A stretch of DNA of 64,000 nucleotides from a bacterium (GCA_019753235.1 JAIELF010000006.1:27041-91040), one strand, 5' to 3'. Counted from the stretch's first letter, positions 11,879 to 52,302 are shown. Made by a program: numbers and translations. Notes: generated by a model from the sequence alone, not told the origin.

Positions 11879-11884
11879 GGTCGA

Positions 11885-27660: not shown

Positions 27661-27692
27661 ATCCTTTTCCCTTTTTTCAGGCGTTTGCCGAC

Positions 27693-28808: not shown

Positions 28809-28902
28809 TTTAATTCAACCATTCCGCTAGCGTATGGTGCTCAGGGCATCACTTTTCGACGTCGGCGTCATCCATCGGGGGCGGGTAACCCTGCGGACCT
28901 GG

Positions 28903-29019: not shown

Positions 29020-29070
29020 GCTCGATGGAGCCGGCAGCGAGGCAGGCTCAACGAAGGGGAAGGATGTTTT

Positions 29071-33900: not shown

Positions 33901-36900
33901 CCATTCGCTCGACGAGTACTGGAATCTCATGATGGATCGCGTCGATGCGATTCAAGAGATCCCCAAGGATCGATGGAACATCGACGAGTACTTTGACAAA
34001 GACCCTGATTCGCCTGGAAAAATGGTGACGCGATGGGGAGGATTCGTCGATCGAATCGATCAGTTTGATCCCCAGTTCTTCGGCATCTCGCCGCGCGAAG
34101 CGGCTCGGATGGATCCGCAGCAGCGAATGCTTTTGGAGACAACGTGGGAGGCTCTGGAACATGCCGGCCTCCCTTCCGATCGAGTTGCCGGGTCGAGAAC
34201 AGGAGTCTTCGTCGGCATCGGTGGCACCGACTACTCTCAGCTTTATCGACGATTTGACAACCCGACGGAGTACCTTGATGCCTACTGCGGGACGGGCAAC
34301 GCGCTGAGCATTGCGGCCAATCGGCTCTCGTACATTTTCGATCTGCGCGGACCAAGCCTGTCGGTCGATACAGCTTGTTCGTCGGCGCTTGTGGCGATTC
34401 ACTATGCCGCCCAGAGTCTTCGCCAACGCGATTGCGACATGGCCATTGCCGGCGGCGTCAATGCGATTCTGACCCCGGAAGTGACCATCGCCTTTTCCAA
34501 AGCGCGGATGCTTTCGCCCGATGGTCGATGCAAAACTTTCGATGCGGACGCCAATGGTTACGTTCGCGGCGAAGGTTGCGGCGTCGTGATTTTTAAACGA
34601 TTGGCCGATGCGGTTCGCGATGGGGATCCTGTCTTAGCCATCCTTCGGTCGACTGCAGTTAATCAGGACGGCAAGACGACCGGAATCACGGCCCCCAACG
34701 GCCCCGCTCAGAAGGAATGTGTCCGGACTGCTCTGGAACAGGCCGGCGTCAAGGCCAACGAACTGACCTACATCGAGGCACATGGCACGGGAACGCCGCT
34801 GGGCGATCCGATCGAAGTCAATGCTTTGCGTGATGTCGTTGCGGGTCGACCCGAATCGGAACCGGTCTGCTATCTCGGCTCGATCAAGGCGAACATCGGT
34901 CACCTGGAGACCGCTTCGGGTGTGGCCGGCTTGATTCGCGTGGTCCTGATGATGAAGCATGGCATCATTCCGCCTCAAAGAAACTTTCAGAAGCTGAACC
35001 CGCACATCAAGCTAGAGGGTTCGCCGCTGCGAATCACGACCGAGCCGGTTCGTTGGACTGGTTTGGCCGATCATCGTCGATTCGCGGGCGTGAGCGGTTT
35101 TGGATTCGGCGGAACCAATGCACATCTGATTCTCGAAGCTCCTCGGTTCTCGGCTGACCTCGAAGAGAATGAGAACGAGATTCCCGAGCGACCTCAGCAT
35201 GTCGTCGTTTGGTCGGCCCAGTCGGAAAATGCTCTTCGCGACTATGCAGCGAACTTTCTGGCCCTCCTAGATGCTCAGCCGGAAGCGACCGCCGCCGACT
35301 GGGCTTGGTCGACTGCTCGACTCCGGACGCCGTTCGATTTTCGCGCGACCGCGATCGTCGAATCGATCAACGACTTACGGGACCAATGGACGAGCTTCGT
35401 CGAGACGGGTCGGTCGCCGAATGTGGTGACCGGGCCGGTTCGCGTTCGATCGAAGCCCAAGATGGCGATGCTCTTTACGGGTCAGGGATCTCAATATGCC
35501 GGCATGGCCAAAGATCTCTTTGAGACTGAGCCGGTCTTTCGGTCGTATCTAGAAGAATCGGCTCGACTGCTGGCGGGTCGACTTCCTCGTCCACTTCTCG
35601 ATGTTCTTTTTGATGCCGACAGCAACGATGTGAATGAGACCACGTACACCCAGCCGGCGCTGTTTGCGGTCGAGTATAGTCTCGCCAAGTTATGGCAAAG
35701 CTGGGGAATCGAGCCGACAAGCTTGCTGGGACACAGTGTTGGAGAGATTGCCGCCGCCACCTTTGCCGAGGTGATGTCGCTGGAGGATGGCTTAGCGCTG
35801 ATTGCCAAGCGGGCAGAGTTGATGGGCAAGCTTCCGACGGGCGGCAAGATGGCCGTCATCTTTGCCAGCGAGGCCGATGTCCTCCGGTCGATCGCTGCCT
35901 TGAATGAAGGCGAACCGAGAAGGGGCTCTGCCAGGGTCGATATCGCTGCCATCAATGGACCCGAGAACACGGTGGTGTCGGGGCCCGAACAGGCCGTTGA
36001 TGAATTGCTCGCGCGGTTCGCCGAGGGAGATGTTCGGACGCAAGAACTGGTTGTTTCGCACGCGTTCCATTCATCGTTGCTCGAGCCGATGCTCGATGAG
36101 TTTGAACGATTTGCCCAAACGATCTCCTATCGTCCGGCGCGGATTCCGCTGGTTTCGAATGTCACCGGAGCGTTTTTCGCGGAGGGAGAAGCCCCTGATG
36201 CTCGGTATTGGCGGCGTCATGCTCGCGGCGCGGTTCGATTTGCGGATGGGATGTTGGCCCTTTCGAAATCGCGCGTCGATGTCTATCTAGAAGTCGGTCC
36301 GCATCCGAGCTTGGTGGCGATGGGACGTCGCTGTGTCAAGCCGGGCAAGCAACTCTGGTGTGGCTCTCTTCGGCGGGGTTCGGTCGATTCAACCGTGATG
36401 GCCCAGACCATCTCGAGTCTCTTTATCCATGGCACGCCGATCGATGTTGCCCGGCGAGATGCCGGTCGCCCGCGCCGCCGGCTCGAGCTTCCGACCTATC
36501 CATTCCAGCGACAACGATTTTGGATGGAAGAGGATGCCGACAAGAAGTCGACTCGTTGGCTGGCAACCAGCGATGCGACGGCGCATCCTCTCTTGGGTTC
36601 GCCTGTTCCTCTCGCGATGGCGACCCATGTCTTTGCCGGGGAACTCAGCACGCGCCGGGTTCCGTCGCTGGCGCATCACGTGGTGCAAGGGTCGATTGTG
36701 TTACCGGGCGCTGCCTATCTCGAAACCGCATTGGCCGCAGCGCACGCTGTCTTCGGGCCAGGCGTTCATCGTGTCGAGAATATCAATTTTCAGCAGGCTC
36801 TTTTTCTTCCGGAAGGCCGGCGTCAGGCCATTCAGGTTGTTGTTTCGCCGGAAGTCGCTGGTACCAGTACGTTCCAGTTCCTGAGTCTGCCCGCGGATGC

Positions 36901-39900
36901 ACCGGCGGGGACTTCATGGACCACGCACTCGGCCGGTGTTCTCGCGCGGGTAACCAGTGCCGACCCGGTGCAGGCGGTCCGCGAGATCCCGACCCATGTT
37001 CGCGATGAGGTCGACATCTATCACGATCGAGCCGACCTCTACACCAAACTTCGTGATCGCGGCATGGAGTACGGCGAGCTCTTTCAAGTCTCGCAGGAAA
37101 TCTGGAAAAAAGGGCAGGAGACACTTTCGCGGCTGGCACTCCCCGAGGCTTTGAAGGATGAGTTGACGAAGTTCCAACTCCACCCGGCGATCATGGATGC
37201 ATGCATTCAGATGCTGGGAGCAACCATCCCAGAAGAACTCGTCGCCAGCGGTACCGGCGAAACTTACCTTCCCACGGGTGTCGCGCAGCTTCGGCTTTTC
37301 TCCTCGCCGCAGCCCCAGATGTGGGTCCACGCGAAGCTTCACACCGATTTTGCCAAAGAAGGCCTTCGGCTCGCGCAGGGAGATATCTATCTTCTCGACG
37401 ATGCCGGTCGAGTCATCGCGGAGTTCCTAGGCGTCACCCTGACAAGAATCGGCGCTCGCCACAGTGGTGCCGAGGTCCACACCTCGGAGCAGTGGGTTCA
37501 TTCGGTCGTTTGGAATGAGAGCTCGCTGGCGGGTGATCAAGAATTATCGCGCGGGCCGTGGGTTCTGCTCGGCGATAATCAAGGGGTGACGATGTCGATG
37601 GCGTCGCTCCTGTCGCAGCGTGGAATCAAGCCGATCGTCGCGGTCCCAGGCCGTGAGTTTGCCCGAACCAACTCAGGCTACCGACTTCGCTGGAATAACC
37701 CGGCCGACTACCGCAAGCTGGTCGAAGCGGTCGGACCATCTCGGTTTGTCCATGCCTGGAGCTTGCGATCCGACCGAGGCGCTACCAAGCAAGAGGAGGT
37801 CCGTTCGTCGACGCTCAGTCTGCTGTATTTAGTGCAAGCAATCGATCAACCGACCAGCGAGCTCTTTGTGGTCACGCGCGGTTCGCAGTCTGTTCTTATC
37901 GAGGATGACACGGACCCGGCCGCGACGGCAGTCTGGGGTTTGGCCCGTGTTGTTGCCAATGAACGGCTCGACTTGCCGACGAGACTCATCGATCTCGATC
38001 CGGCCGCCGACGAAGGAGTCAATGCATCATCGCTGCTCGCGGAACTGGGCAGTAACGCCGGCGAGCGAGAGGTTTCTTATCGCGGCGAACAGCGCCGAGT
38101 TCCTCGACTTCGACGTGAAGGTTCTTTGATTCGTCAGGATGCGAAGGAAGAGAACCGTTCGCATACCACGCTCCCCGCGTCGGGCGCGTATCGGCTCGAA
38201 GTCGGTGCCACGCCGACGTTGGATCGACTGGCCTATCGATCGTTTGCGCGCTCGGCACCGGGGGAAGGGGAGATCGAGATCGAAGTTGCCGCCACGGGTT
38301 TGAACTTCTCCGACGTTCTGAAAGCCATGGGGCTTTATCCCGGCCTGAAGCCCGGCGCGGTGCCGATCGGCATCGAATGTTCTGGTCGAGTCGTGGCGAA
38401 GAGCCCCACGGTGAAGGAGTTCGAGATTGGCGACGAAGTGGTCGGCATCGCTCCCTTTAGCTTCGCCAGTCACACGACCACAAGCGCGATGGGTGTTGTT
38501 CGAAAGCCTGCGTCCATCTCGCATGAGGAAGCCGCCGCGGTGCCAATCGCGTACTTGACGGCTCATTATGCCCTTCGTTGGCTGGCTCGGGTGGAACCAG
38601 GCGAAAGAGTTCTCATTCACGCAGCCGCCGGCGGCGTCGGATTGGCGGCAATTCAGATTTGCCAAGCCATCGGTGCCGAAGTCTTCGCCACCGCGGGGAG
38701 CGACGAGAAGCGTGATTATCTCCGGTCGCTTGGGGTCAAGCATATCTTCAACTCGCGTTCGCTGGATTTTGCCGACCAGATTCGCGAGGTGACGCAGGGC
38801 AAGGGGGTCGATGTTGTTCTGAACTCTTTGCCGGGCGAGGCCATCACGAAGAGCATCGAATCGCTGGGGGCCTACGGTCGTTTCCTAGAGATCGGCAAGA
38901 CCGACATCTACCAGAATAAAGCGATCGGGCTCTATCCATTCCAAAATAACTTGTCGTACTTTGCCATCGATCTCGACAAGATGATGCGAGAAAAGCCGAC
39001 GCAAGTACGAAAGATGTTCCTCGAGGTCGTCGATCTCTTCGACCGCGGAATGTATCGGCCATTGCCCATGACGACGTTTGCAGCCGAGCAAACATCCTCG
39101 GCTTTCCGCTACATGGCACAGCGAAAAAATATCGGCAAGGTCGTTGTCTCCTACGCTCGGTCGACTTCCTCGCCCGAAGCTGCCGGCATGATACGTGCCG
39201 ACGGTGCCTACTGGATTACCGGGGGATTGGGGGCGCTGGGTCTAGAGATTGCCCAATGGCTCAGCCAACTCGGCGCTCGGCAACTCGTCCTCTTTGGACG
39301 GTCGGCACCCAGTCCATCGGCCGAGGAAGTGCTCGCTCGGCTTCGGCGTGATGGTGTCCAATCGACGATCGTGATGGCTGATGTTGGGGACCGCGAGTCG
39401 CTGCAGCAATCGGTCGCGAAGCTCCCGTCGCTGTTGGCTCGGCCGATCGGCGTATTCCATGTCGCTGGTGTGCTGGATGATGGTGTCCTCGCGCAGCAGA
39501 ACCGCGATCGATTCGAGAAGGTCCTTCGGTCTAAAGTCGACGGAGGCTGGAATCTTCACGAGATTACGCTCGATGCTCCGCTCGATCACTTTGTTCTCTT
39601 CTCTTCGGTCGCGAGCCTGCTCGGTTCGCCGGGCCAGGCGAACTACGCTGCTGGCAACGCCTTCCTGGATGGATTGGCCCAGCATCGTCGATCGATGGGT
39701 TTGCCAGCCTTGTCCATCAACTGGGGCCCCTGGGCCGAGGTGGGCATGGCTGCTCGATTAGGCGAGGACAAACTGACCGCTCGCGGCATCGCGCCGATGA
39801 AACCAGCTCAAGCGATCGAAGTCCTTGAGAAACTTCTCGAAACGTTTGCGACGCAGGTGACGGTGGCCGATATCGATTGGCCCACGATGCTGGCTCTCTA

Positions 39901-40297
39901 TCCCGACGGTCCGCCGGCCATGTTTTCGGAATTGGCGGGACAAGCCAGCAAGAAAGCCGAGGGAGATGACGAGCTTCGTCAACGACTTCTCGATACCCCT
40001 CACGAGGATCGTCTCGAAATGCTGCAGAGCTATTTCGTCGATCAGATCGCGCGGGTGATGGAACTCGATGCTGCCCGCATCAATCCCGAGCAGCCGATGA
40101 ACACGCTCGGTTTGGATTCATTGATGGCGATCGAACTGAAGAATGGAATCGAGTCTAGCCTCGGGGTGAATATCCCCATGGCCAAGTTCCTGGAAGGGCC
40201 CAGTGCTCACCAGTTGTCGAGGATCGTGCTTGAACTGATGACGGCGAGAATGCCCGCGCCGGGTTCCGATTCCGCCGGCGGCGGGAACGAAAAGTAA
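30905..40297 (+). CDS. type I polyketide synthase, single fully reducing module with FAAL loading: FAAL-CMAS(MT)-ACP-KS-AT-DH-ER-KR-ACP
   Basis: 3130 aa from ATG 30905 (the ORF opens at GTG 30827). Domains by motif, approximate nt coordinates: FAAL 30941-32606 (FLQYTSGSTAAPRGVMVTHGNL, YHDMGLI, GGPNFAYDL, TSSGKIQR). CMAS-family MTase 32702-33502 (VLDVGCGWGG, VVGLTLSPEE, GAIEHF, DYQRTLVAWL). ACP1 33590-33814 (FGLDSLA, Ser codon 33695-33697). KS 33857-35144 (DTACSS with Cys codon 34376-34378, EAHGTGT, NIGHLE). AT 35462-36523 (GHSVGE with Ser codon 35735-35737, HAFH 36059-36070). DH 36581-37453 (HPLLGSPVP, DACIQ). Linker/pseudo-KR about 37500-38170. ER 38187-39156 (HAAAGGVG). KR 39197-39760 (TGGLGALG, LDD, YAAGN). 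ACP2 40004-40240 (LGLDSLM, Ser codon 40118-40120). There is no TE/R/C domain after ACP2. Confidence 0.97.
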   Translation: MTPTSRPLEQIPFQNLVEVLRFRAQQQPERMAIKFLTDGEEAHTSWTYEQLQRRSMQIANHLCRHAEPGDRVLLVFPPGLDYIAAFYGCLYAGLIAVPTYAARLTRSSSKLLSVLEDSQARVVLTTARLMEGLPADLAEVVHGTHWMAVEDVPASASDSFDCPEITRDDVAFLQYTSGSTAAPRGVMVTHGNLLHNQSVIAEKFQSTADSVGVIWLPPYHDMGLIGGILQPVYSGMPVILMPPLSFIQRPFRWLKAISDHRASASGGPNFAYDLCVERISPEQRATLDLSSWKVAFNGAEPIRSESLHRFAETFAECGFRREAFYPCYGLAESTLLVTGADCQQGAIEATIDPVRLEQAEAVADHSPSARRLVASGTAARGQSVIIVDRATGGPAPEGRVGEIYISGPSVAKGYWNRPEETRETFEARVVGQEDLFLRTGDLGFFAEGQLYVTGRQKDLIIVRGSNHYPQDIEATATQSHDSLKGGRGAAFSVDGTDQERLVLVHEVTSRDASQFDEILTAITRAIALEHELQVSEIVLVGQHRVPKTSSGKIQRRACREQFLKGELSGVLASWKTGQAPTSLRDSRLSLPAGEKSDVLGADFYRFVLDPDYLVDSAALWEGADQLSGAQTNKFVRLAELSDLRPDTDVLDVGCGWGGFLKYAVDSLGSRSVVGLTLSPEEAAHAGSLMGPRGKVLVSSWSDFSADQSFDSVVCAGAIEHFVTLADRARGEAVKRYRSFFKRARRWMRGTGRLAIETLISVRRADSPQAYQDVSTLAKMFPHSSIPSIDDLRDACEGLFDLVESDSIRRDYQRTLVAWLGRLHEHRSEILEKFGMETFEKFDRYFEASLRQAKEGYVDLIMLSLQPLNVSPEMLEEDADSRVTRSPLSARSATRSMVEIQEWITQSLARKLRVETSDIDARQPFSTFGLDSLAMVSLVGELETWLEQSLSPTLAWDYPSIETLSAFLAGETTGDRQSEEPAALAEPIAIIGMGCRFPGAHSLDEYWNLMMDRVDAIQEIPKDRWNIDEYFDKDPDSPGKMVTRWGGFVDRIDQFDPQFFGISPREAARMDPQQRMLLETTWEALEHAGLPSDRVAGSRTGVFVGIGGTDYSQLYRRFDNPTEYLDAYCGTGNALSIAANRLSYIFDLRGPSLSVDTACSSALVAIHYAAQSLRQRDCDMAIAGGVNAILTPEVTIAFSKARMLSPDGRCKTFDADANGYVRGEGCGVVIFKRLADAVRDGDPVLAILRSTAVNQDGKTTGITAPNGPAQKECVRTALEQAGVKANELTYIEAHGTGTPLGDPIEVNALRDVVAGRPESEPVCYLGSIKANIGHLETASGVAGLIRVVLMMKHGIIPPQRNFQKLNPHIKLEGSPLRITTEPVRWTGLADHRRFAGVSGFGFGGTNAHLILEAPRFSADLEENENEIPERPQHVVVWSAQSENALRDYAANFLALLDAQPEATAADWAWSTARLRTPFDFRATAIVESINDLRDQWTSFVETGRSPNVVTGPVRVRSKPKMAMLFTGQGSQYAGMAKDLFETEPVFRSYLEESARLLAGRLPRPLLDVLFDADSNDVNETTYTQPALFAVEYSLAKLWQSWGIEPTSLLGHSVGEIAAATFAEVMSLEDGLALIAKRAELMGKLPTGGKMAVIFASEADVLRSIAALNEGEPRRGSARVDIAAINGPENTVVSGPEQAVDELLARFAEGDVRTQELVVSHAFHSSLLEPMLDEFERFAQTISYRPARIPLVSNVTGAFFAEGEAPDARYWRRHARGAVRFADGMLALSKSRVDVYLEVGPHPSLVAMGRRCVKPGKQLWCGSLRRGSVDSTVMAQTISSLFIHGTPIDVARRDAGRPRRRLELPTYPFQRQRFWMEEDADKKSTRWLATSDATAHPLLGSPVPLAMATHVFAGELSTRRVPSLAHHVVQGSIVLPGAAYLETALAAAHAVFGPGVHRVENINFQQALFLPEGRRQAIQVVVSPEVAGTSTFQFLSLPADAPAGTSWTTHSAGVLARVTSADPVQAVREIPTHVRDEVDIYHDRADLYTKLRDRGMEYGELFQVSQEIWKKGQETLSRLALPEALKDELTKFQLHPAIMDACIQMLGATIPEELVASGTGETYLPTGVAQLRLFSSPQPQMWVHAKLHTDFAKEGLRLAQGDIYLLDDAGRVIAEFLGVTLTRIGARHSGAEVHTSEQWVHSVVWNESSLAGDQELSRGPWVLLGDNQGVTMSMASLLSQRGIKPIVAVPGREFARTNSGYRLRWNNPADYRKLVEAVGPSRFVHAWSLRSDRGATKQEEVRSSTLSLLYLVQAIDQPTSELFVVTRGSQSVLIEDDTDPAATAVWGLARVVANERLDLPTRLIDLDPAADEGVNASSLLAELGSNAGEREVSYRGEQRRVPRLRREGSLIRQDAKEENRSHTTLPASGAYRLEVGATPTLDRLAYRSFARSAPGEGEIEIEVAATGLNFSDVLKAMGLYPGLKPGAVPIGIECSGRVVAKSPTVKEFEIGDEVVGIAPFSFASHTTTSAMGVVRKPASISHEEAAAVPIAYLTAHYALRWLARVEPGERVLIHAAAGGVGLAAIQICQAIGAEVFATAGSDEKRDYLRSLGVKHIFNSRSLDFADQIREVTQGKGVDVVLNSLPGEAITKSIESLGAYGRFLEIGKTDIYQNKAIGLYPFQNNLSYFAIDLDKMMREKPTQVRKMFLEVVDLFDRGMYRPLPMTTFAAEQTSSAFRYMAQRKNIGKVVVSYARSTSSPEAAGMIRADGAYWITGGLGALGLEIAQWLSQLGARQLVLFGRSAPSPSAEEVLARLRRDGVQSTIVMADVGDRESLQQSVAKLPSLLARPIGVFHVAGVLDDGVLAQQNRDRFEKVLRSKVDGGWNLHEITLDAPLDHFVLFSSVASLLGSPGQANYAAGNAFLDGLAQHRRSMGLPALSINWGPWAEVGMAARLGEDKLTARGIAPMKPAQAIEVLEKLLETFATQVTVADIDWPTMLALYPDGPPAMFSELAGQASKKAEGDDELRQRLLDTPHEDRLEMLQSYFVDQIARVMELDAARINPEQPMNTLGLDSLMAIELKNGIESSLGVNIPMAKFLEGPSAHQLSRIVLELMTARMPAPGSDSAGGGNEK
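32702..33502 (+). other. CMAS-family (cyclopropane-fatty-acyl / mycolic acid synthase-like) SAM methyltransferase domain embedded in the PKS
   Basis: DVLDVGCGWGGFLKY (SAM motif I as in CFA synthases), VVGLTLSPEE, FDSVVCAGAIEHF, GRLAIETLI, MFPHSSIPSIDDL, RRDYQRTLVAWLGRL, FDRYFEASL. The order and spacing follow E. coli Cfa and mycobacterial CmaA-type enzymes (PF02353, from memory). Confidence 0.8.
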
Positions 40298-40390: not shown

Positions 40391-40951
40391 TTACTTGCCG
40401 AGTTCGGTTTCAATCGCCTTAGTCAGCTCGGTCGATTCCGGTTTAACAGCCGACCGATATCGGCCGACAATTTTGCCATCCTTCGAGATGAGAAACTTTT
40501 CAAAGTTCCATTTCACGGGGCCAGCAAAGTCAGGGTCGCTCTCTTTGCTCGTCAGATGCTTGTAGAGATCACAGGCCTCGTCGCCGTTGACATCGACTTT
40601 AGAGAACATATCGAAACCGACTTTGAACTTCGTCTTGCAGAACTCCTGAATCTCGCCTTCCGATTTGGGCTCTTGTTTACCGAACTGGTTGCAAGGGAAG
40701 CCGAGAACTGCCAAGCCCTTATCTCCATACTTCTCATGGAGGGCTTGCAGGCCTTCGTACTGATTGGTGTAGCCGCAATAGCTGGCCACATTGACGACCA
40801 GCAGAACCTTTCCCTTGTACTTGGTCAGGTCGACGTTCTCGCCGGTAATGGTTTTCGCAGAAAAACTGAGCACTTTGGGGGTCTCCTCCGCCAGAACGGC
40901 GGTAGCAACCAGACCCAGCATCGCCGTTGAAAGTAGCTTTCTCATCCGCAT
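40391..40951 (-). CDS. glutathione peroxidase, secreted/periplasmic form (Cys type)
   Basis: VNVASYCGYT (Cys codon TGC at 40777-40775, not TGA), LGFPCNQFGKQEP, WNFEKFL. N-terminal signal MRMRKLLSTAMLGLVATAVLA. AGGAG precedes ATGs at 40951 and 40945. The track ORF opens at 41020. Confidence 0.9.
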   Translation of the reverse strand: MRMRKLLSTAMLGLVATAVLAEETPKVLSFSAKTITGENVDLTKYKGKVLLVVNVASYCGYTNQYEGLQALHEKYGDKGLAVLGFPCNQFGKQEPKSEGEIQEFCKTKFKVGFDMFSKVDVNGDEACDLYKHLTSKESDPDFAGPVKWNFEKFLISKDGKIVGRYRSAVKPESTELTKAIETELGK

Positions 40952-41222
40952 TCTCCTGTTGAACTGATTTCCCGCCCATTCAAACTGATTCCACCGTATG
41001 GTAGTGCAACCTATCCACATCGCCAGCCAACCGAGGGGTGAATTTTTGGGGCGATAACCGCCAAAGCGCGCTCGGTCGATGGCTTATCGGCGGATGTTCA
41101 TGAAACCTTCGTCGTTTCACGCGGCGGCGACGAGCCCGGATTTATGGGGCGACAGTCGGGTCGGTCCTGTTGGTGACATCGCCCGTTTGCTATTGGACGC
41201 GAACTCCCGGTGGCCGTCGGGA

Positions 41223-42260
41223 TCAGGTTAAACGATCTCGCTCGACGCCGAGGGTTTGCCGGACACTCCAGAGTGGTCGCCTCATGACGTTTTCATGAAT
41301 CCGACCGACGTAAGCTCCGATGATTCCCATGCAAAAGAGCTGTACGCCGCCGATGAATAGGAGGGAAATAATCACCGAGGCGGTCCCGGGGACGTATTCG
41401 ACTCCCCATTGCTTGAAGGTTGCCGGCGCCATTCGAATGGCCAGCGTTAGGACCGCACCGAGGAACGCGATCACCGAAACCAGCGCCCCGAACACGGTGG
41501 CGAAATGGAGTGGAATTCGGGAGTTGCTCAGGACACCGTCGGCAGCAAGCTTCATCAACTTCCAATACGAGTACTTCGTTTGGCCGGCTTGACGGGCGGC
41601 TCGTTCGTACGGAAAAAGCGATTGACGAAACCCGACCCAACTTCGCAAGCCACGAATGAAAGGCCGACTCTCGGGCATCTGCACGATCACATCGACCACT
41701 TGCCTATCCATCACGCAGAAATCCCCCGCGTCCAGCGGCAGATCAAGCTCGGCAATCAGCGACAAGAGCCGATAAAATGAGAAATACAGCGAGCGTTTAA
41801 GCGGGCCTTCTTTTCGGTGACGCCGCACGCCAACGACAACATCGAATCCCTCTTTCCATTGACCGATCATCTGGCCCGCAACCTCGGGTGGGTCTTGGAG
41901 GTCGGCATCAAGGACCGCGACGACATCGCCGCTTGATGCTTGTAGCCCCGCTCGAAGCGCTAACTGATGCCCGAAATTGCGACCGAGGCGAATCCCTTTC
42001 CAGCGAGGATTGCGAGCATGGATATTTTGAATGATCGACCAGGTTTCGTCCGTCGATCCATCGTCGACGAGAATCACTTCATAGTTTTCACACCAATGAG
42101 CGATCTCCTTCTCGAGCCGATCGAAAAGCTTGAACAGTACCTCCATCTCATTGAGGCATGGAATTACCACCGACACACTCCGAAGCATCCGGCCAGACGG
42201 GTCGGGTAGCTTGTGGGTCGCGGCAAGTTCCGCAGTGGGGCCGGCAGTAGGTTGATTCAA
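41223..42260 (-). CDS. GT2 glycosyltransferase of the polyprenyl-phosphate sugar transferase type (ArnC/GtrB/DPM1-like)
   Basis: VSVVIPCLNE, VDDGSTDET, LDADLQDPPE, RGLRSWVGF, plus two C-terminal TM helices. TTG 42260 (AGGAAA upstream) or ATG 42188 (MLRSVSVVIP). Confidence 0.88.
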   Translation of the reverse strand: MNQPTAGPTAELAATHKLPDPSGRMLRSVSVVIPCLNEMEVLFKLFDRLEKEIAHWCENYEVILVDDGSTDETWSIIQNIHARNPRWKGIRLGRNFGHQLALRAGLQASSGDVVAVLDADLQDPPEVAGQMIGQWKEGFDVVVGVRRHRKEGPLKRSLYFSFYRLLSLIAELDLPLDAGDFCVMDRQVVDVIVQMPESRPFIRGLRSWVGFRQSLFPYERAARQAGQTKYSYWKLMKLAADGVLSNSRIPLHFATVFGALVSVIAFLGAVLTLAIRMAPATFKQWGVEYVPGTASVIISLLFIGGVQLFCMGIIGAYVGRIHENVMRRPLWSVRQTLGVERDRLT

Positions 42261-42412: not shown

Positions 42413-43180
42413 TCAGGATGCGTCGGCCGAGCGGATTGCGCTTCCCAGAACTCTTTTCCCGACGGCCGTCACGTTGTCCGGGGAGACTTCCGTGATGCAT
42501 GCCAGGAGGTTCCCGGAGAGGAAATCGGGGTTTTGCGAGGCAAAGAACCGGGCGACGCGATCATCGCGGGACCAAGTTCGGGCGACAAGTTCGGGGTTGC
42601 GGTACGGCGTGCAGGCGGGGCCCGAGATGATGCCGCGAACGGGGTCGTATCCCTCGGGGAACTTCTGCGCGATGAACTGTTGCAAGATCCGCCGAATCGG
42701 CACGGGGGTCGGCCGATCTGGGTGCGGATAATATTCTCGAAAAAAACCTGGAAGAAACTGGTAAGCACGGTGGGAGGAGGCGGCAAAGACCCAATAGACA
42801 TGCTCGGCCGAGAGCTGGCGTGCCAATCCAAAGGTGTGCTTTGCCCACGTCGATAGCCAAGCCCTTTCACCCATGTAGTCTGGTGACAGGAGGGTGTCAC
42901 CCGAGTAGACGGCGGCGACGGGCGGGTCCTCGTCGACACTCCACAGCACGCGTGACGTGGTGAAGCCTTGGATCCTCTGCAGATCATCCTCGATCAAGAC
43001 GACCGAGTCTTTATCGTCGAGATCCGCTTCGAACTTGGTCGGAGAGACGTTCTCGTAGTGATGCGATAGAAGTTCATACATTCGCGCCCGCTGCGACGGC
43101 TCGATCTGCGTCGGCGTCACAATTCGAGAAAGCGTTGGTCGGCGAGCCGGCCGAGCGTCGTCGGTGAGAAATTCATTCAT
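42413..43180 (-). CDS. hypothetical 255-aa cytoplasmic protein, possibly a GNAT-fold acyltransferase relative (unverified)
   Basis: Clean ATG ORF. MYELLSHHYENVSPTKFEADLDDKDSVVLIEDDLQRIQGFTT and HRAYQFLPGFFREYYP remind me of a family annotated as GNAT-like N-acyltransferases. I cannot confirm this without an HMM search. Confidence 0.6.
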   Translation of the reverse strand: MNEFLTDDARPARRPTLSRIVTPTQIEPSQRARMYELLSHHYENVSPTKFEADLDDKDSVVLIEDDLQRIQGFTTSRVLWSVDEDPPVAAVYSGDTLLSPDYMGERAWLSTWAKHTFGLARQLSAEHVYWVFAASSHRAYQFLPGFFREYYPHPDRPTPVPIRRILQQFIAQKFPEGYDPVRGIISGPACTPYRNPELVARTWSRDDRVARFFASQNPDFLSGNLLACITEVSPDNVTAVGKRVLGSAIRSADAS

Positions 43181-43351: not shown

Positions 43352-44506
43352 TTACCGCAATGGGATATCGATTCCACCTTGGAAGCGCCGACTGAAGAAG
43401 ACTTGCAGCAGGCGGTCCTTGAACGACTGGCTGGTGTCCATCGCTTTATCGAAGTCCTCCTTCGTGAGCGAAAGACAATGAATGTCGTTGACCGCTCGAA
43501 CCGACGCGGTGCGCGGACGGTTGGTGATAAGAGAAATTTCGCCGAACACATCGCCGGGGGTCAATTGGCGAAGTGTCTGCATCTTGCCGAGTTCCTCTTT
43601 GACAACCTCGGCGGATCCAGACTTCATCAAATAGAGCTTATCCCCCTCATTTCCTTGACGAATGATCCAGGATCCCGCAGGAAATCGTTCTTCCATCATT
43701 TTCTGCGAGAGCTCGGCCAGCGTGGCTGGGGGAAGCTTCGAAAGAACATCGACGCGCGAAAGGAATTCACAAGTGGCCATCGAGTTCTGCACGTCGATAT
43801 CGGTGGCGACGCGCCCATCGACCATATTCACGATCCGGCTGGCAACATCAAGGATTCGATTGTCATGGGTGACGAGCAAGATCGAACAACCATCCTTGTG
43901 AGCCAATTCTTGCAACAGGTCGACCACGTCTCGGCTTCGTTCTTTATCGAGCGCCGCCGTCGGTTCGTCGGCAAGGATCAGCTTGGGTTTGGCGACGAGC
44001 GCCCGTGCGATGGCCACCCGTTGACGCTGCCCGCCCGAAAGTGCCTCTGGCTTGTATTGGAGTCGATGACCCATTCCGAGCCGATCGAGTATCTCACTTG
44101 CTCGGCGGACCTTTTCTTCTTTCGGAATCTCTAACAAATCAAGCGGTAAGCAAACGTTCTGCAACGCCGTGAGTGATTCAAAAAGATTATGCGCTTGGAA
44201 GATAAAGCCGATCCCTCGGCGAACGGCGACTAACTCGTTTCGCGATAAGCCGGTCATCTGTCGCGACAGGACCGTCATACGCCCATCTTGAGCTGACCTG
44301 AGTCCACCGATGAGCGTTAAGAGCGTCGTTTTTCCCGAACCGGACGGCCCGGTCATGATGACCAGTTCACCCGGCCAGACACGCAGTCGTACATCGTACA
44401 AGACTTGTTTGCGATTCTCGCCCGAGCCGAAATGATGGTTGACCTGGTCGCACCAGACGAGCGGCGCTCCATCAAATTCGGGCACAAAATCAGTCGATGG
44501 ATTCAT
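43352..44506 (-). CDS. DevA-like ABC exporter ATPase fused to a C-terminal cyclic-nucleotide-binding domain
   Basis: I prefer ATG 44506 (MNPSTDF), which overlaps the upstream stop by 1 nt (TGATG). The track ORF opens at 44572. Walker A GPSGSGKTT, LTLIGGLRS (DevA-like), LSGGQRQR, ILADEP, VTHD. These are followed by a cNMP domain with FGEISLITNRPRTASVRAV. Confidence 0.9.
   Translation of the reverse strand: MNPSTDFVPEFDGAPLVWCDQVNHHFGSGENRKQVLYDVRLRVWPGELVIMTGPSGSGKTTLLTLIGGLRSAQDGRMTVLSRQMTGLSRNELVAVRRGIGFIFQAHNLFESLTALQNVCLPLDLLEIPKEEKVRRASEILDRLGMGHRLQYKPEALSGGQRQRVAIARALVAKPKLILADEPTAALDKERSRDVVDLLQELAHKDGCSILLVTHDNRILDVASRIVNMVDGRVATDIDVQNSMATCEFLSRVDVLSKLPPATLAELSQKMMEERFPAGSWIIRQGNEGDKLYLMKSGSAEVVKEELGKMQTLRQLTPGDVFGEISLITNRPRTASVRAVNDIHCLSLTKEDFDKAMDTSQSFKDRLLQVFFSRRFQGGIDIPLR
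43370..43775 (-). other. cNMP-binding (CAP/PKA-type) domain at the C-terminus of the ABC ATPase
   Basis: FLSRVDVLSKLPPATLAELSQKMMEERFPAGSWIIRQGNEGDKLYLMKSGSAEV ... GDVFGEISLITNRPRTASVRAV. This is a canonical beta-barrel with a phosphate-binding cassette FGE..L....PR(T)A(S)V, encoded at about 43550-43493. Confidence 0.85.
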
Positions 44507-45651
44507 CAGAAGACCTCCGCGGGGTCTGCTTTCATGACGCGACCGACGGCGATCAATCCAGAGATGACGCACATCACGACGGTCAACACCGAGACTAAGA
44601 CGATTCGCATAAGGGTGAGTTCCATGTGAAGCCCCGTCAGTTGCGTCATGATCGAATAGAAGGCCTGGCTGGCGAAAAGAGCGGGGACAAGTCCCAAAAC
44701 CGCCAACAGGATCGCTTCTTTCAAGACGACGCCGACAAGGTAACCATTGCTAAAACCGATTGCCTTGAGCGTGGCGAATTGAGGCAAGTGGTCGTTGATC
44801 TCGTTGTAAAGAATCTGGTAGCAGATCATCACGCCGATGGCGAACCCAACGATCAGCCCCAGCGTGAAAATGAAACCGGTTGGCGTCATCTTCGACCAGA
44901 ATCTTCGCTCGATCTGATCGTACTCGTCAATCGTGAAGACGTCGATGTCGCTGGGCAAGGCGTCGCGAATGGCTTGCTGAACCTTGGCCGGTGACTCGCC
45001 CGATTTCAATCGGATCAAGCCGACAGAGATCTGGTCGGGCGCCGATAGTGGGAACAGCGCACGGTAGGTTGATTGACTAGCCAGAACGTTTCCGTCCATC
45101 TTAAAGTCGGCTCCGAGATTGAACGTTCCTAGAACGCGAACCCGGCGAGCACCAAGCTCGGCCTCGTTGCCGGCGACCGGCGTTCCAAAGAAACTTCGAG
45201 AGCCCCGGTCGAATAGAATCGTCATCGGCTCGTGCAGCAAGCTTGACTGCGCAACAACTTCGTCCAAAAGAAAGGGTGGATGATCTGGATCGATGCCGAT
45301 CACGCGAATGACATCTTGTCGACCGGTCTGAGGATGTCGCCAAAGCGTGCTGTCCATCGAGACGCCTGTCGTGCGGGCGACGCCCGGAACATCGCGGGCT
45401 TGGATGATCCTTTTTTCCAGAAAGAATTCTTCCAGTGTCAGGTTGTGCTTCGTTCGATTCACCATGAGGAGGTCGGCATCGAACAGGCGAATGCCTAGGG
45501 TTTGACTGTCGAAGAGCCCGGTTAAAAATCCGAGCTGCATGAACATCAAAAGAACCGCGAACGCGATCCCCATCATCGCTAAGAGAAGTCTGCTCTTGCG
45601 ATGGGTCAGCATGTACCACGTCAGTGGGACGCGGTTGGCGTTACCGATCAT
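44506..45651 (-). CDS. DevC-like ABC exporter permease (paralog 2 of the tandem pair)
   Basis: 381 aa from ATG 45651, which overlaps the upstream stop (ATGA). It has an N-terminal TM, a periplasmic domain and a C-terminal FtsX bundle (FATLKAIGFSNGYL ... GRVMKADPAEVF). Confidence 0.88.
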   Translation of the reverse strand: MIGNANRVPLTWYMLTHRKSRLLLAMMGIAFAVLLMFMQLGFLTGLFDSQTLGIRLFDADLLMVNRTKHNLTLEEFFLEKRIIQARDVPGVARTTGVSMDSTLWRHPQTGRQDVIRVIGIDPDHPPFLLDEVVAQSSLLHEPMTILFDRGSRSFFGTPVAGNEAELGARRVRVLGTFNLGADFKMDGNVLASQSTYRALFPLSAPDQISVGLIRLKSGESPAKVQQAIRDALPSDIDVFTIDEYDQIERRFWSKMTPTGFIFTLGLIVGFAIGVMICYQILYNEINDHLPQFATLKAIGFSNGYLVGVVLKEAILLAVLGLVPALFASQAFYSIMTQLTGLHMELTLMRIVLVSVLTVVMCVISGLIAVGRVMKADPAEVF

Positions 45652-46778
45652 GCGAAGAGCTCCGCGGGGTCGGCGGTTCGAACTCGCCTGGCGGCGAGAA
45701 TGCTGGAGGCGGCACACATCACCAGCGTCAGCGTGAGGACCAATGCAGCTCGGTCGAACGTCATCCAGACGGGAACCTTGGCGGCATCGCGAAGAATCTT
45801 GTACAGCAGCAAGCCCCCCACGTACGCCGGCACGAAACCGACCAGGGCATAAATGAACCCTTCAGTCACCACCAACAAGTACACGGCCGAGTCGCTATAT
45901 CCCATCGCTTTCATCGTGGCGAGTTCTTTGATATGGCTTGAAACCTGGGTCGAGAGGATCTGATAGAGAGTCACCGCGCCGACAATGAAACCGACGACTG
46001 CCCCTGCACGGAACATGATGCCGATCGGCTTGATGTTGACGAAGTAATTGACCTCAGCGGCGGTGATTTGTGGACGGGTCCAAACACGAACGTCGGGTCC
46101 CAATGCCACGCTCAGGCGATGCGCCACCCGGTCGATCTCTTGGCCAGGCTTCACGCGAAGGAAGATCAGGTTGGGGCGATCGACCTGCCGACCAGGAAGC
46201 AGTCGACAATAGGTCAAGTCGCTCACGAGGGCGTCGGCTCCCGCGATGAACCCGGTGCCGAGCTTATAACTTCCCACGATATCGGCGTGGCCCGAGCCGA
46301 TATCGACAGTGGAACCAACCTCGCGCGGGCCGAATTCGCCGCGAGCTTCGCTATCCATTAAGACGGTGTCTGGACGTTGCAGCAGACTGGCTTGCTGTTG
46401 GATCGCCGGGTCAAGCATCGGCGGATCATCAGGATCGATGCCGAGCACAAGAATACCCCGCCTGAGCTTGTCCTCGAGACTTCGAATCAGCGTGAAACTT
46501 GCAAACAAAGGCTTGGCCGACTCGATGCCTGGAACATCTTTGACGCGCTCGGCAACATCGCGAGAAAGGGTCCCGGCGTTGACCATGAAAACGTATTGTG
46601 GACTGGTTAGGACGAGATCAAAATCAATCGCGCGATAGACAATGTCCGCGCTATTCTCGGCGGCGGAGAAGATTCCAAATTGCATGAACATCAGCAGGAT
46701 AGAGAACGCGACCCCTCCCAAGGAAGCAAGGGCGCGCCACTTTTTGTGCGTCACGTTCTGCCAAGCAATTTTTAGCAT
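45648..46778 (-). CDS. DevC-like ABC exporter permease (paralog 1 of the tandem pair)
   Basis: 376 aa with the same architecture (LATMKAMGYSDSAV ... ARRVRTADPAELFA). Its ATG 46778 overlaps the devB-like stop by 1 nt. Confidence 0.88.
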   Translation of the reverse strand: MLKIAWQNVTHKKWRALASLGGVAFSILLMFMQFGIFSAAENSADIVYRAIDFDLVLTSPQYVFMVNAGTLSRDVAERVKDVPGIESAKPLFASFTLIRSLEDKLRRGILVLGIDPDDPPMLDPAIQQQASLLQRPDTVLMDSEARGEFGPREVGSTVDIGSGHADIVGSYKLGTGFIAGADALVSDLTYCRLLPGRQVDRPNLIFLRVKPGQEIDRVAHRLSVALGPDVRVWTRPQITAAEVNYFVNIKPIGIMFRAGAVVGFIVGAVTLYQILSTQVSSHIKELATMKAMGYSDSAVYLLVVTEGFIYALVGFVPAYVGGLLLYKILRDAAKVPVWMTFDRAALVLTLTLVMCAASSILAARRVRTADPAELFA

Positions 46779-47989
46779 CAGGGACTCGCGGCCGGTGTCG
46801 CGATCATGACATCGACTTGCATTCCGATCCGCTGCGGCGCGACGCCCGGCTTATCGAGACGCAGGCGAACTTCGACGACGCGCGTATCCAGTCGAGCGGT
46901 CGGATCCAGGCCCAGGACCTCGTTCCGTTTGACCATCGAACCAATGCGATCGACCGTCGCTTCGAGAGGCTCCGCCAGGGCCAAGCTGGTGATGGTCGCC
47001 TTCTGGCCAACCTTTACCCGAGCGATGTCTGCTTCGTAGACCTCCGCGATGACGTAGAAGACATCATTTTGTCCGAGTGTGATCATGGGACGCTGCCCGA
47101 TGGTTTCACCCGCTTGAATGTTGACTTCGAGAATCTGTCCATCGACGGGGGATAGCACGGTGGCCCGGGCGAGTTCGGCCTCGATGAGGGAAACTTGTCG
47201 CTCGGCTCCACTGACATCGATCAGTGCCAGCGACTTATCCAGGCCAGCCTTGGTGCTGTCGTATTTTTTTTCCGCTGCCAGTTGGTTGATCTCTTTTTCT
47301 TTCTCCATGACGCGAAGCTTCGCGCGAAAGCCCCGGAGTTGTTCGCGATATCGATCGACCACGAGCGTTTGCCGATCGATCTCTGCTTGGGGCAAGTTCT
47401 TCGGGAGTTTCTCGAGATCCCGCTCGGCCTGCTGTAACTGATTCTCGGCAACCTTGATCTCGGCATCCTGAGCTTCAATCTGGATGGGGACGATCTCGGC
47501 GGGGCGTCGCTTCGCCAATTCCGTCTCGGCCAGCAGGGCCTGAGCGTGCTTTTTCTCTTTGTCGACCATGTCGCGAGCCTGTTCGAGTTTTCCGCGAGCG
47601 ACTTCCAACTGTTTGGAAAGGACGCCTTCGCCGAGGCATTCGACGACCTGTTCGCCGGCTCGCACGATTTGGCCTGGCTTGACTAGAACCTTTTTGACTC
47701 GGTCGCCGATGGTGCCGGTGATGATGATGACCCCTTCGCCCGGTTCGATGCGTCCCAGGGCCGAGACGGTATCGCGATGGGGTGGTTTGACTGGCTTGCC
47801 CGTGTCGCTTGCCGGTGCGGGACTGGCAGGGCTACAACCTGTGGTCAGTCCCGCGAACAACACCGGCAAGGTGATCATTCTCCAAGTCATTCCCGAATGG
47901 GATCGGCGTGCGCTCGTTGCCGACGATATCGAACAAGTCCGATGATTGATCAACGGTTGGTCCTTCTGCAATGTCACATCTCGCGTCAT
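46778..47989 (-). CDS. DevB/HlyD-like membrane fusion protein
   Basis: GRIEPGEGVIIITG, VKPGQIVRAGEQV, a long coiled-coil (LEVARGKLEQ ... LQQAERDLEK ... ), and a beta-barrel C-terminus. A lipobox-like LFAGLTTGC follows internal Met codons at 47890 and 47878, which are possible alternative starts. Confidence 0.88.
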   Translation of the reverse strand: MTRDVTLQKDQPLINHRTCSISSATSARRSHSGMTWRMITLPVLFAGLTTGCSPASPAPASDTGKPVKPPHRDTVSALGRIEPGEGVIIITGTIGDRVKKVLVKPGQIVRAGEQVVECLGEGVLSKQLEVARGKLEQARDMVDKEKKHAQALLAETELAKRRPAEIVPIQIEAQDAEIKVAENQLQQAERDLEKLPKNLPQAEIDRQTLVVDRYREQLRGFRAKLRVMEKEKEINQLAAEKKYDSTKAGLDKSLALIDVSGAERQVSLIEAELARATVLSPVDGQILEVNIQAGETIGQRPMITLGQNDVFYVIAEVYEADIARVKVGQKATITSLALAEPLEATVDRIGSMVKRNEVLGLDPTARLDTRVVEVRLRLDKPGVAPQRIGMQVDVMIATPAASP

Positions 47990-49075: not shown

Positions 49076-49921
49076 TCACAAGACCTCTAACTTATCCGAC
49101 TTGTCCCACCGGCTCAGTCGGAAGATCGCGATCTCGGGCCGAACCCGAAACCGAAACCGGAGCGTGTAGCCGATTCCCTTGTGAACATAAAGGTATCCTG
49201 AGTCATGATAAAACAGGCCCGAACCGAGCTGAGGCTTAAATCGGCTCCAGGGACCTTCCCCCAGTTCCACCTGACCACCGTGCGTATGTCCACTCAAGAT
49301 GAGATCGCACCGCTTCCCCGCCGCCTGGTCGACTGTTCGCGGGTGATGGGCCAAAACAATTCGCGGGACATCTGGCGAGATGCCTCGGATGGCCTTGGGT
49401 AAATCCGCTTCGCCGCTCCAGAGATCGCAGACGCCGGCCACCGCGAGCGTCGCCCCTTGATAGGTCCTAAGTCGGTGCTCGTTACGCAACACCTCGATCC
49501 CATGCTGGGTTAAAGCGGATTCGACGGCCTCCTTCAGACGAGGAAACCGAGGCTTGCCCCCATAAACCCGGATCGAGTAGTCGTGATTTCCCAGGACCGC
49601 AAATACCCCCAGCGGGGCGCGGAGCTGCCCCACCAATTGAGCCACCGCATCGACATAATGAAAACCCGCGTGGACGTAATCCCCCGTCAAGGCGATCAGA
49701 TCGGGTTTCAAACGAAGCGTTCGGTCGATGGCTTGGCGAAGGTGAGAAGCGGGGACGGCTCGGCAAAGGTGCAGGTCGCTGAGTTGGCAGACCGTCAGAC
49801 CCTCGAGTCGAGGATCCAGGCCAGGGATTCGAATATCGATGTGATTGGTTTCTAGCCAAAAGGGTTCGACCATCCGAGCATAGCTGAGCCTGGCCCAGTT
49901 GCGACCCAGCCAGCGTGCCAA
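49076..49921 (-). CDS. metallophosphoesterase (calcineurin-like)
   Basis: QLSDLHL, LTGDYVH, VLGNHDY, LSGHTHGGQV. Confidence 0.88.
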   Translation of the reverse strand: MARWLGRNWARLSYARMVEPFWLETNHIDIRIPGLDPRLEGLTVCQLSDLHLCRAVPASHLRQAIDRTLRLKPDLIALTGDYVHAGFHYVDAVAQLVGQLRAPLGVFAVLGNHDYSIRVYGGKPRFPRLKEAVESALTQHGIEVLRNEHRLRTYQGATLAVAGVCDLWSGEADLPKAIRGISPDVPRIVLAHHPRTVDQAAGKRCDLILSGHTHGGQVELGEGPWSRFKPQLGSGLFYHDSGYLYVHKGIGYTLRFRFRVRPEIAIFRLSRWDKSDKLEVL

Positions 49922-50784: not shown

Positions 50785-52302
50785 TTATGGACTCAGCACG
50801 ACAGGGAGAAGAGGTTCGACCCAACCTAAAAGAACGAGTGTGCCGACCATCGCGAACAAGATCAACACCACCCTCATGGCGAGAGCGCCTGCCGAGCCCG
50901 ATTGCCCCCCCCAGCACGCACTGGCGACCGGGACCACAGGGGTGAGGAACAGCCATAATCGGGCTGCTTCGCTGCGGTTGCGGCCACTGAGATCCAGTGC
51001 GATTAAAACCACCAGCCAGATCGTCACCAACCGATCTGGACTGGTCGGCCCGAAGTGCCACCCGCTTCGAAAACCCCATGCCAGCGCCACGACGAACAGG
51101 CTCGGGCCGGTCATCATCGCCAATTCCACGAGGTTGATCCCCAGCCAGGGGAAGTACGACCTCGGCATGGCCGTGTAGAAGCCGGCATGTTTGGCCAGGT
51201 TGATCTGCCAGACCTCGATCATCGAGATTTTGTAGTTCTCGAAAAGAGCTTCCATGGGAAGCGCAAGCCCAGCAAGCAGGCAGGCGATCGTGATGATGCC
51301 TCGGCGATACTCTTTTTTGGCGACCGCTTCGCTCAACACGATGGCGCCGGCGATGGCGCCGACCACCACAAAGGCGAGGCTCAGAAAAAGACCGACACTT
51401 CCGATCGCCCCCGCAAGGATTGCGAGCAATCCGATCCGGGCGCGAAACGAGAGGATCACCAAAAGCCAAGTCAGCATCGCTAAGAAAGGAAAAAGCACAT
51501 CCGCCAAGGGAAGGAAGAATAGGCCAGCAGGCAAGACCGACCAAAGGGCCGCCCCCCACCAGCCGGCTCGCGGAGAATATCCCTGTCGAATCGTCGCATA
51601 AATCAACGGCCCGGTTGCCAGCGAAAGGGCCCAAGTGAGAAGGCTGGCGAAAAGAAGTGTCGCGCGATCGGCCGGAGCGAGTGGTTGGCCGATCGCTTCG
51701 AGTCCATCGCGAAGTCTGGCGGGCGACCATTGTTCGATCGTGTCGGCCAGCGCGGGTTCGCGCTGAAACCAAGTCAGCAGCCCGCGAAAGAAAAGGATCA
51801 ATCCTGGGGGATGGGTTCCTTGATGAAAGGAATCAGCCTTCGAAACCCATTCTTTGTAGCCACGAAGAAACTCGTCGGGTCGATCGATCTGTCGGGCCCG
51901 CGCGAAGTATCCCGATGTTGATTCAAAAAAAAGCGCAGGGGCGAATCGCTCCATGCCCAGTGGAGGTGAAGGAAGATCCATCGCGGCTCGCTGCCAACAA
52001 GCCGCGACTCCCAACAACATCAACAGAAGAGCCGCCCGCCCGATCCACCATGCGCGATCGATCAGACGGTCACCCGCGACAAAAACGACCAAATAGAGTC
52101 CTGACGCGATTGCCGGTATCAACCAGGAAGTAAGGCTTGTCGGAGGGACGGGGGAGCGGTTCCAAACCCATTCCCCGACGATCCCAAGCGGGATCGCGGT
52201 CGCCGTCAGAAAGAGGATCGAGCCCGCCGCGAGAACCAAACCGATCCCGGCCAGGACGAATGGCCAACGAACAACAGGGGGTGACGCGAGGGCTCGATTC
52301 AT
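50785..52302 (-). CDS. large polytopic membrane protein (GT-C-like?), function unknown
   Basis: 505 aa with at least 10 hydrophobic helices. The loop with HQGTHPPGLILF is reminiscent of ArnT/PMT-like lipid-carrier glycosyltransferases (tentative). It begins 15 nt after the glgC stop. Confidence 0.7.
   Translation of the reverse strand: MNRALASPPVVRWPFVLAGIGLVLAAGSILFLTATAIPLGIVGEWVWNRSPVPPTSLTSWLIPAIASGLYLVVFVAGDRLIDRAWWIGRAALLLMLLGVAACWQRAAMDLPSPPLGMERFAPALFFESTSGYFARARQIDRPDEFLRGYKEWVSKADSFHQGTHPPGLILFFRGLLTWFQREPALADTIEQWSPARLRDGLEAIGQPLAPADRATLLFASLLTWALSLATGPLIYATIRQGYSPRAGWWGAALWSVLPAGLFFLPLADVLFPFLAMLTWLLVILSFRARIGLLAILAGAIGSVGLFLSLAFVVVGAIAGAIVLSEAVAKKEYRRGIITIACLLAGLALPMEALFENYKISMIEVWQINLAKHAGFYTAMPRSYFPWLGINLVELAMMTGPSLFVVALAWGFRSGWHFGPTSPDRLVTIWLVVLIALDLSGRNRSEAARLWLFLTPVVPVASACWGGQSGSAGALAMRVVLILFAMVGTLVLLGWVEPLLPVVLSP

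Follow-up and report, generated by a model that had tools for sequence, protein, structure and literature searches.

In a 64,000-nucleotide stretch of bacterial DNA (GCA_019753235.1 JAIELF010000006.1:27041-91040), referred to here in its full length as the window, the gene devA::CNB (43352..44506, minus strand) encodes a 384-residue ATP-binding cassette (ABC) ATPase of the DevA/MacB type, whose nucleotide-binding domain (NBD) is followed, at the C-terminus, by one for cyclic-nucleotide binding (CNB domain) with an intact phosphate-binding cassette (PBC). A first-pass annotation of this DNA had proposed this domain architecture, had considered it unusual, and had suggested that export of a lipid by the corresponding pump may be gated directly by cAMP or cGMP. 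The architecture was confirmed in the analysis reported here and turned out to be that of a large family. As for the gating, the picture we favor, with a probability of roughly 60%, is that a cyclic mononucleotide (cNMP) binds the tail of DevA and tunes NBD dimerization and hence export, probably of an envelope lipid.

Domain layout of DevA::CNB

The open reading frame (ORF) enclosing devA::CNB (43352..44572, minus strand) encodes 406 amino acids and begins at a GTG codon. We set the true start at the ATG at 44506 because this codon overlaps the stop codon of the upstream gene devC2 by one base (TGATG) and because the resulting 384-residue form is also that of the protein-database entry P0001; residue numbers below refer to this form, and Pfam domain ranges to the numbering of the ORF. 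When searched against Pfam, the protein matched ABC_tran (PF00005) at residues 60-206 (E = 7e-34) and then cNMP_binding (PF00027) at residues 295-380 (E = 1.2e-23; a score of 83.3 bits against a gathering cut-off of 27.5), with the latter match spanning profile positions 2-88 of 89. The N-terminal 220 residues matched the NCBIfam DevA family TIGR02982 with 325.1 bits, above the curated cut-off of 295.8, over model positions 5-219 of 220. The fusion of an ABC ATPase to a C-terminal cNMP domain, the order of the two domains, and the DevA/MacB-type assignment all stand, as both profiles were matched with scores above their cut-offs and far beyond chance, and the fusion is kept in every relative examined.

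The NBD occupies residues 17-238 (43793..44458) and is followed by the linker and the N-terminal helices of the CNB domain (residues 239-270; 43697..43792) and then by the CNB β-barrel with its B/C helices (residues 271-375; 43382..43696), all on the minus strand. The range originally assigned to the additional domain, 43370..43775, corresponds to residues ~245-379, i.e., to the linker helix and the entire cNMP domain. An AlphaFold2 (AF2) model of the protein, computed with 119 sequences, has a mean predicted local distance difference test score (pLDDT) of 87.2 and a predicted template modeling score (pTM) of 0.72; it places the NBD at residues 17-238, helices at 239-251 and 260-269, the β-barrel at 271-348, the PBC helix at 323-328, and the C-terminal helices at 349-375. 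The secondary structure modeled for residues 239-375 fits an eight-stranded β-barrel with flanking A and B/C helices, with the pLDDT of the CNB domain above 80 up to approximately residue 360 and lower toward the end of the C-helix. At these scores, the model is a confident prediction of two domains, the second with a canonical CNB topology.

All of the catalytic motifs of the NBD are present: the Walker A motif GPSGSGKT (residues 53-60), the Q-loop glutamine Q104, the signature LSGGQRQR (residues 156-163), the Walker B aspartate D180, the catalytic glutamate E181, and the H-loop VTHD (residues 212-215, with H214 as its histidine). These motifs are invariant or nearly so across the 119 sequences. 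Comparison of the full model with solved structures by Foldseek gave template modeling scores (TM-scores) of approximately 0.9, normalized to the target, for the NBD of MacB and for LolD, MJ0796, and YbbA, and the best PDB matches by both sequence and fold were MacB and LolD. Judged by its motifs, the N-terminal domain is predicted to be a catalytically competent MacB-type ATPase. The Foldseek matches were to the NBD only, and no solved chain combining an NBD with a CNB domain was found in the PDB, by sequence or by fold.

The first-pass annotation had read an intact PBC from the string FGEISLITNRPRTASVRAV, which corresponds to residues 321-339. The cassette itself, FGEISLITNRPRTASVRA, spans residues 321-338 and maps to 43493..43546 on the minus strand, and the pattern of Gly-Glu followed by Arg-x-Ala-Thr/Ser is present in it as FGEISLITNRPRTASV. 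In PKA, PKG, and CAP, the PBC residues conserved here are those in contact with the 2'-OH of the ribose and with the cyclic phosphate of the ligand. Among 120 homologs of 52-88% identity, F321, G322, E323, R332, and A334 are invariant and position 335 is always Thr or Ser; among 78 proteins reconstructed from species-representative genomes of at least three phyla, G322, R332, A334, and T/S335 are found in all 78 and E323 in 77. Arginine R373 of the C-helix is likewise kept in 119 of the 120 homologs and in 75 of the 78 species genomes. The cassette is thus intact, as had been claimed, and its conservation points to strict purifying selection on the ligand-contact residues. The nearest solved domains by sequence are the CNB domains of PKG and of the PKA regulatory (R) subunit (E values of 1e-24 to 1e-29), followed by those of MloK1, Epac, and CRP. 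Because the PBC residues are invariant or nearly invariant in both sets of relatives, the CNB domain is predicted to be ligand competent, and binding of a cNMP by this C-terminal domain is highly probable.

A widespread fusion in a four-gene pump cassette

In a collection of 5.8 billion proteins, each of the 120 best clusters carries PF00005 together with PF00027, and the fusion proteins are ~360-400 residues long, except for one 301-residue fragment; the named clusters among them come from metagenome-assembled genomes (MAGs) of Gemmatales, Gemmataceae, and Pirellulales. A scan of one genome per species (GTDB), using a profile made of the NBD tail, the linker, and the CNB domain, gave at least 600 pattern matches, of which at least 534 encode a relative. 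In each of the 80 loci that were fetched, the match extends from query residue 1 to at least residue 146 and thus includes the same, collinear NBD-CNB junction. The labels of these loci belong to Planctomycetota (Gemmatales, Pirellulales, Planctomycetaceae), Verrucomicrobiota (Opitutaceae, Puniceicoccaceae, Cephaloticoccus, Rariglobus), and Acidobacteriota (Blastocatellia, Vicinamibacteria), with a few MAGs carrying proteobacterial or other labels. The fusion is therefore the rule for a large family in these three phyla, and since it is common to all 120 best clusters and to at least 534 relatives in species-representative genomes, the suspicion that it is unusual was not borne out; outside these phyla, Rv2564 of Mycobacterium tuberculosis has also been described with PF00027 (PMC4886424, PMC7761784). 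DevA::CNB is, in short, one member of a large, catalogued family, and its architecture is not rare.

When the CNB domain alone was used to query the representative library, 52,591 CNB relatives were obtained at E <= 1e-3, but this search gave no usable count of the fusion because giant proteins with multiple CNB domains filled the top ranks. These giants (P0121-P0124), 1551-3779 residues long with 9-16 tandem CNB domains, outscore the true family in the CNB-alone search.

devA::CNB is the last gene of the run devB-devC1-devC2-devA::CNB, all on the minus strand, in which stop and start codons overlap at each junction. The first gene, devB (46778..47989), encodes a membrane-fusion (periplasmic adaptor) protein (MFP) that matches TIGR02971 with 204 bits, above the cut-off of 129. 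It is followed by two genes for FtsX permease paralogs: devC1 (45648..46778), whose best NCBIfam match is devC at 267 bits, below the cut-off of 290, and devC2 (44506..45651), which matches devC (TIGR01185) with 338 bits, above that cut-off, and Pfam FtsX and MacB_PCD. The devC1 start codon overlaps the devB stop (TGATG) and the devC2 start codon overlaps the devC1 stop (ATGA), and these overlaps, with that of devA::CNB, predict that the four genes are translationally coupled in the window. The hallmarks of a MacB-type (type VII) system were found in the products, with FtsX in both permeases, MacB_PCD in DevC2, and an NBD closest to MacB and LolD.

To follow the gene order beyond the window, its proteins were compared by tblastn with 85 related loci, 64 of which have enough upstream sequence. 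In essentially all 85, the CNB segment adjoins the NBD segment. Of the 64 loci, 56 have a pair of same-strand DevC-like genes immediately upstream, 55 have a DevB-like gene upstream, and 53 have DevB with both DevC; the conserved unit is therefore the four-gene cassette devB-devC-devC'-devA::CNB. In the window and in loci L006-L085, DevC1 and DevC2 cross-match each other's genes at just ~29-38% identity, and by analogy with LolC/LolE the two permeases presumably form a heterodimer. Variations on the cassette were also observed: a Gemmatales MAG (L018, 1906..9468) has a tandem double devC-devC'-devA cassette whose second copy is cut by the contig end, and two Planctomycetia loci (L057, 5280..5681; L058, 3881..4282) have a further CNB-domain ORF 1-1.5 kb downstream of devA::CNB.

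Proposed gating of export and alternative explanations

We propose that the pump is a tripartite, type VII exporter of the DevBCA/MacB type, composed of the DevB adaptor, a probable DevC heterodimer, and two copies of DevA, each with its PKA/PKG-like CNB domain joined by a short helix to the last strand of the NBD. We infer that cAMP or cGMP would bind the PBC via E323 and R332-T333-A334-S335 and that the conserved C-helix (F371, R373) would cap the bound cNMP; the hinge and lid helices would then shift, and the short helical linker would transmit their movement to the NBD. Because the CNB domain sits directly on the C-terminus of the NBD, such a movement may alter the ease of ATP-driven NBD closure and gate the mechanotransmission cycle, so that the level of the second messenger would be translated into pump activity. 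In MetNI and ModBC, C-terminal regulatory domains hold the NBDs apart with ligand bound (PMC10710835); in the present case, the effect may be either activation or inhibition. The least certain step is the substrate, which by analogy with cyanobacterial DevBCA may be an envelope lipid or glycolipid, at a little less than even odds. A broader proposal, more speculative again, is that the cassette is ancient and common to Planctomycetota, Verrucomicrobiota, and Acidobacteriota, and that in these phyla cAMP or cGMP would gate the export of unusual envelope lipids (polyketide glycolipids or sphingolipid-like molecules) to the outer membrane.

The genes downstream of the cassette bear on the substrate. 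Directly after devA::CNB lies the gene for a 255-residue orphan protein (42413..43180, minus strand) that has no Pfam, NCBIfam, or PDB sequence match and only 8 homologs among the 5.8 billion proteins. Because its AF2 model (mean pLDDT of 84.6) has a GNAT-like fold, with GNAT acetyltransferases as the best Foldseek matches (E ~1e-5), the orphan may be a lineage-specific acyltransferase; its gene is directly downstream of the pump gene in each of the close-relative loci examined (L003, L004, and L006). Next are the genes for a family-2 glycosyltransferase (GT2; 41223..42260, minus strand; Pfam Glycos_transf_2, E = 3e-33) and a glutathione peroxidase (GPx; 40391..41020), and then, convergent with the operon, a single ORF for a 3156-residue type I polyketide synthase (PKS; 30827..40297, plus strand). 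The PKS orthologs in L003 and L004 contain FAAL-like AMP-binding, CMAS-type methyltransferase, PP-binding (acyl carrier protein, ACP), ketosynthase (KS), and further PKS domains, and no integrated thioesterase is among the Pfam families listed for them. The full downstream set of orphan, GT2, GPx, and PKS is kept in L003 and L004 (70-88% identity), while L006, 76% identical in the C-terminal region, keeps the cassette, the orphan, and GPx.

Several observations weigh against the proposed gating of lipid export. The AF2 model is that of a monomer and does not show how the CNB domains would be placed on an NBD dimer. The position after the PBC arginine is occupied by Thr in this protein, by Asn in the majority of relatives, and by Ser in further ones, so that either cAMP or cGMP may be preferred. 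Our literature search found no paper characterizing an NBD-CNB ABC ATPase, and in a 2023 review of how transporters are regulated post-translationally, CNB-domain fusions are mentioned for MFS transporters only (PMC10710835). Among the ~35 window ORFs scanned, none was found to encode a nucleotide cyclase or a class III phosphodiesterase, and only 6 of the 85 loci have a class III cyclase domain at a distance of ~6 kb or less from the cassette. With regard to the substrate, L006 has no tblastn match to the GT2 or the PKS in the next 4.4 kb; the PKS is absent from most other loci, and more distant loci have different neighbors; and a second MacB-like MFP and permease, accompanied by a thioesterase, flank the PKS on its far side.

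The alternative that survives best grants that the domain binds a cNMP but takes the pump to be unrelated to the PKS, i.e., a housekeeping exporter of an envelope component, toxin, or drug beside a secondary-metabolite cluster whose product would leave through the second MFP/FtsX/thioesterase operon. We regard this as a minority explanation, albeit a serious one, and it affects the substrate part of our interpretation only. The second set comprises a HlyD-type MacB-like adaptor (29071..30294, minus strand) and an FtsX/MacB_PCD permease (27693..28808, minus strand), beside which lies a type II thioesterase (26899..27660, minus strand) upstream of the PKS; the three genes are divergent from the promoter side of the PKS. 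No ATPase gene is adjacent to this set (26899..30294), the nearest lone ABC ATPase gene being at 19087..19842 (plus strand). Since the second set also flanks the PKS, it is a rival candidate exporter of the PKS product, and export of that product by the devA::CNB pump is just one possibility. Separation of pump and PKS is further favored by the GPx gene, which stands between the operon and the convergent PKS, as well as by the gene content of L006 and the many loci with a cassette and no PKS. Against it, PKS and GT2 synteny is retained at 70-88% protein identity, lipid-synthesis genes recur beside the cassette in unrelated lineages (Opitutaceae and Vicinamibacteria), and PKS-like enzymes make the glycolipid that the characterized founding member of the DevBCA family exports. 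The link between the pump and an adjacent PKS-derived lipid is weak: it is supported by the synteny in L003 and L004, and it extends neither to L006 nor to most other loci.

The lipid-synthesis genes of other lineages were found in different arrangements. Four Opitutaceae loci (L048, L024, L068, and L073) have a KS match at the corresponding convergent position ~5 kb downstream. L048, the one annotated locus of the four, encodes (6449..12455) a PAP2_3 protein whose best NCBIfam match, below the cut-off, is phosphoinositol dihydroceramide synthase, together with a 381-residue GNAT-like protein downstream of the cassette and a KS-ACP-dehydratase (DH)-like-aminotransferase (AONS) synthase whose C-terminus resembles BioF/Kbl/serine palmitoyltransferase; this convergent gene set looks like one for sphingolipid biosynthesis. 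The GNAT-like protein has no sequence similarity to the 255-residue orphan, and homology between the two is not claimed, the shared point being a GNAT-type fold or a weak GNAT-family match only. Upstream of the cassette, one Vicinamibacteria locus has a KS fragment and L019 has a FAAL-like AMP-binding gene. Such recurring neighbors fit the glycolipid-export role of the DevBCA family, without being proof of it.

It is unlikely, in our judgment, that the CNB-like domain has lost cAMP/cGMP sensing and, with another ligand or none, serves as a constitutive dimerization or docking module for the ATPase. Some effector domains of the CRP/FNR type have been repurposed, and ligands that are not cNMPs are bound by domains of this superfamily; the AF2 model has long, conserved helices at the C-terminus that could make a dimer interface, and cyclases are neither among the window ORFs scanned nor enriched near the cassette. 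However, the Gly-Glu/Arg-x-Ala-Thr/Ser residues of the PBC are normally lost upon repurposing, and it is because they are kept across the 120 homologs and 78 genomes that we consider repurposing improbable; in addition, the nearest solved relatives are genuine cAMP/cGMP binders. Least likely, by a little, is that the cNMP controls assembly, localization, or stability of the pump (e.g., recruitment of DevA to DevC/C') instead of the ATPase cycle: as a separate subunit, DevA has to dock on the permeases, CNB domains of other proteins work by partner release (PKA R/C), and nothing speaks specifically against it, but covalent placement after the last NBD strand and a short conserved linker suit direct allostery at least equally.

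By a rough estimate, the co-localization of cyclases with the cassette (6 of 85 loci) is near background, as cyclases are abundant in the phyla that carry it, and for this reason it was not used as evidence. A metallophosphoesterase encoded upstream in the window (49076..49921) was considered as a cNMP phosphodiesterase and rejected, as it is YaeI/LpxG-like, scores below both cut-offs, and is not CpdA-like. ORFs in 13795..16976, 50785..52302, and 10107..11219 (394, 666, 505, and 370 residues) had no Pfam match at E <= 1e-4. On one metagenomic contig, which is among these 6 loci (L005, 252..5734, minus strand), divergent genes ~5 kb upstream of the cassette encode a hybrid histidine kinase (MCP-like, GAF, PAS, HisKA, and receiver domains) and a receiver-class III cyclase, a possible local source of cNMP.

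Significance and relation to known systems

If gating of export by cNMP binding to DevA is true, direct control by a cyclic mononucleotide would for the first time be established for an ABC transporter, and ABC exporters would join the short list of direct bacterial cAMP/cGMP effectors, i.e., CRP-type regulators, channels, and acetyltransferases. In Planctomycetota, Verrucomicrobiota, and Acidobacteriota, the export of envelope lipids or metabolites would then have a switch at the post-translational level, which would offer a way into the trafficking of envelope lipids in these little-understood phyla. What makes the protein valuable is the proposed mechanism and not the architecture, the genome observation itself not being rare. 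With a PBC strictly conserved across hundreds of genomes and a simple cassette, the protein is a clean biochemical target.

The closest parallel is the cyanobacterial DevBCA-HgdD system, the heterocyst-glycolipid exporter of Anabaena/Nostoc. Here too, the pump is a tripartite one of the MacB type, DevA, DevB, and DevC2 pass the cut-offs of TIGR02982, TIGR02971, and TIGR01185, respectively, and in this lineage the genes lie near a PKS and a glycosyltransferase, like the dev/hgl genes. Unlike the canonical DevA, which is covered by the 220-position TIGR02982 model and is without a C-terminal domain, the protein described here has a 145-residue CNB tail; there are two DevC paralogs instead of one, and the host lies outside the cyanobacteria. 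A TolC-like gene was not seen nearby.

Rv0073 and Rv2564 were reportedly placed among the cNMP-binding proteins of M. tuberculosis by McCue et al. in 2000. Rv2564 (GlnQ) is listed with a PF00027 cyclic-nucleotide-binding domain (PMC4886424), and PMC7761784 treats the pairs Rv2563/Rv2564 and Rv0072/Rv0073 as type VII systems resembling MacB and depicts the ATPase with an additional regulatory domain, "NBDr". These systems, compared with ours here on the basis of literature descriptions, belong to another phylum, have a single permease gene, and are likewise functionally uncharacterized; through the related Rv2564 and Rv0073, the proposed mechanism may have some medical relevance.

A ligand-binding domain on the C-terminus of the NBD also controls NBD closure in MetN (C2 domain), ModC, and MalK (PMC10710835). 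Those domains have other folds (C2, TOBE, and MalK-RD), their ligand is the transported substrate (trans-inhibition), and the transporters are importers. Foldseek matches to MetN/MetNI chains covered the NBD only, with high root-mean-square deviation over the full length. DevA::CNB is not placed among the trans-inhibited ABC ATPases, and the relationship is one of analogy and not membership, because its C-terminal domain has the CNB fold and the Foldseek matches cover the NBD only.

CNB-type domains are also fused to ABC exporters of the HetC/NHLP type, i.e., peptidase-containing or bacteriocin-type exporters (PMC10986499 on HetC). In contrast to DevA::CNB, a stand-alone MacB-type ATPase that has the domain at its C-terminus, these are type IV exporters of full length in which the domain is N-terminal. 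Lastly, MloK1, HCN/CNG channels, the PKA R subunit, and PKG share with DevA::CNB the domain family and the PBC consensus FGE...PR[TSA]A[TS]V, and they include its best PDB sequence matches, whereas their output is a pore or a kinase and that of DevA::CNB would be an ABC ATPase.

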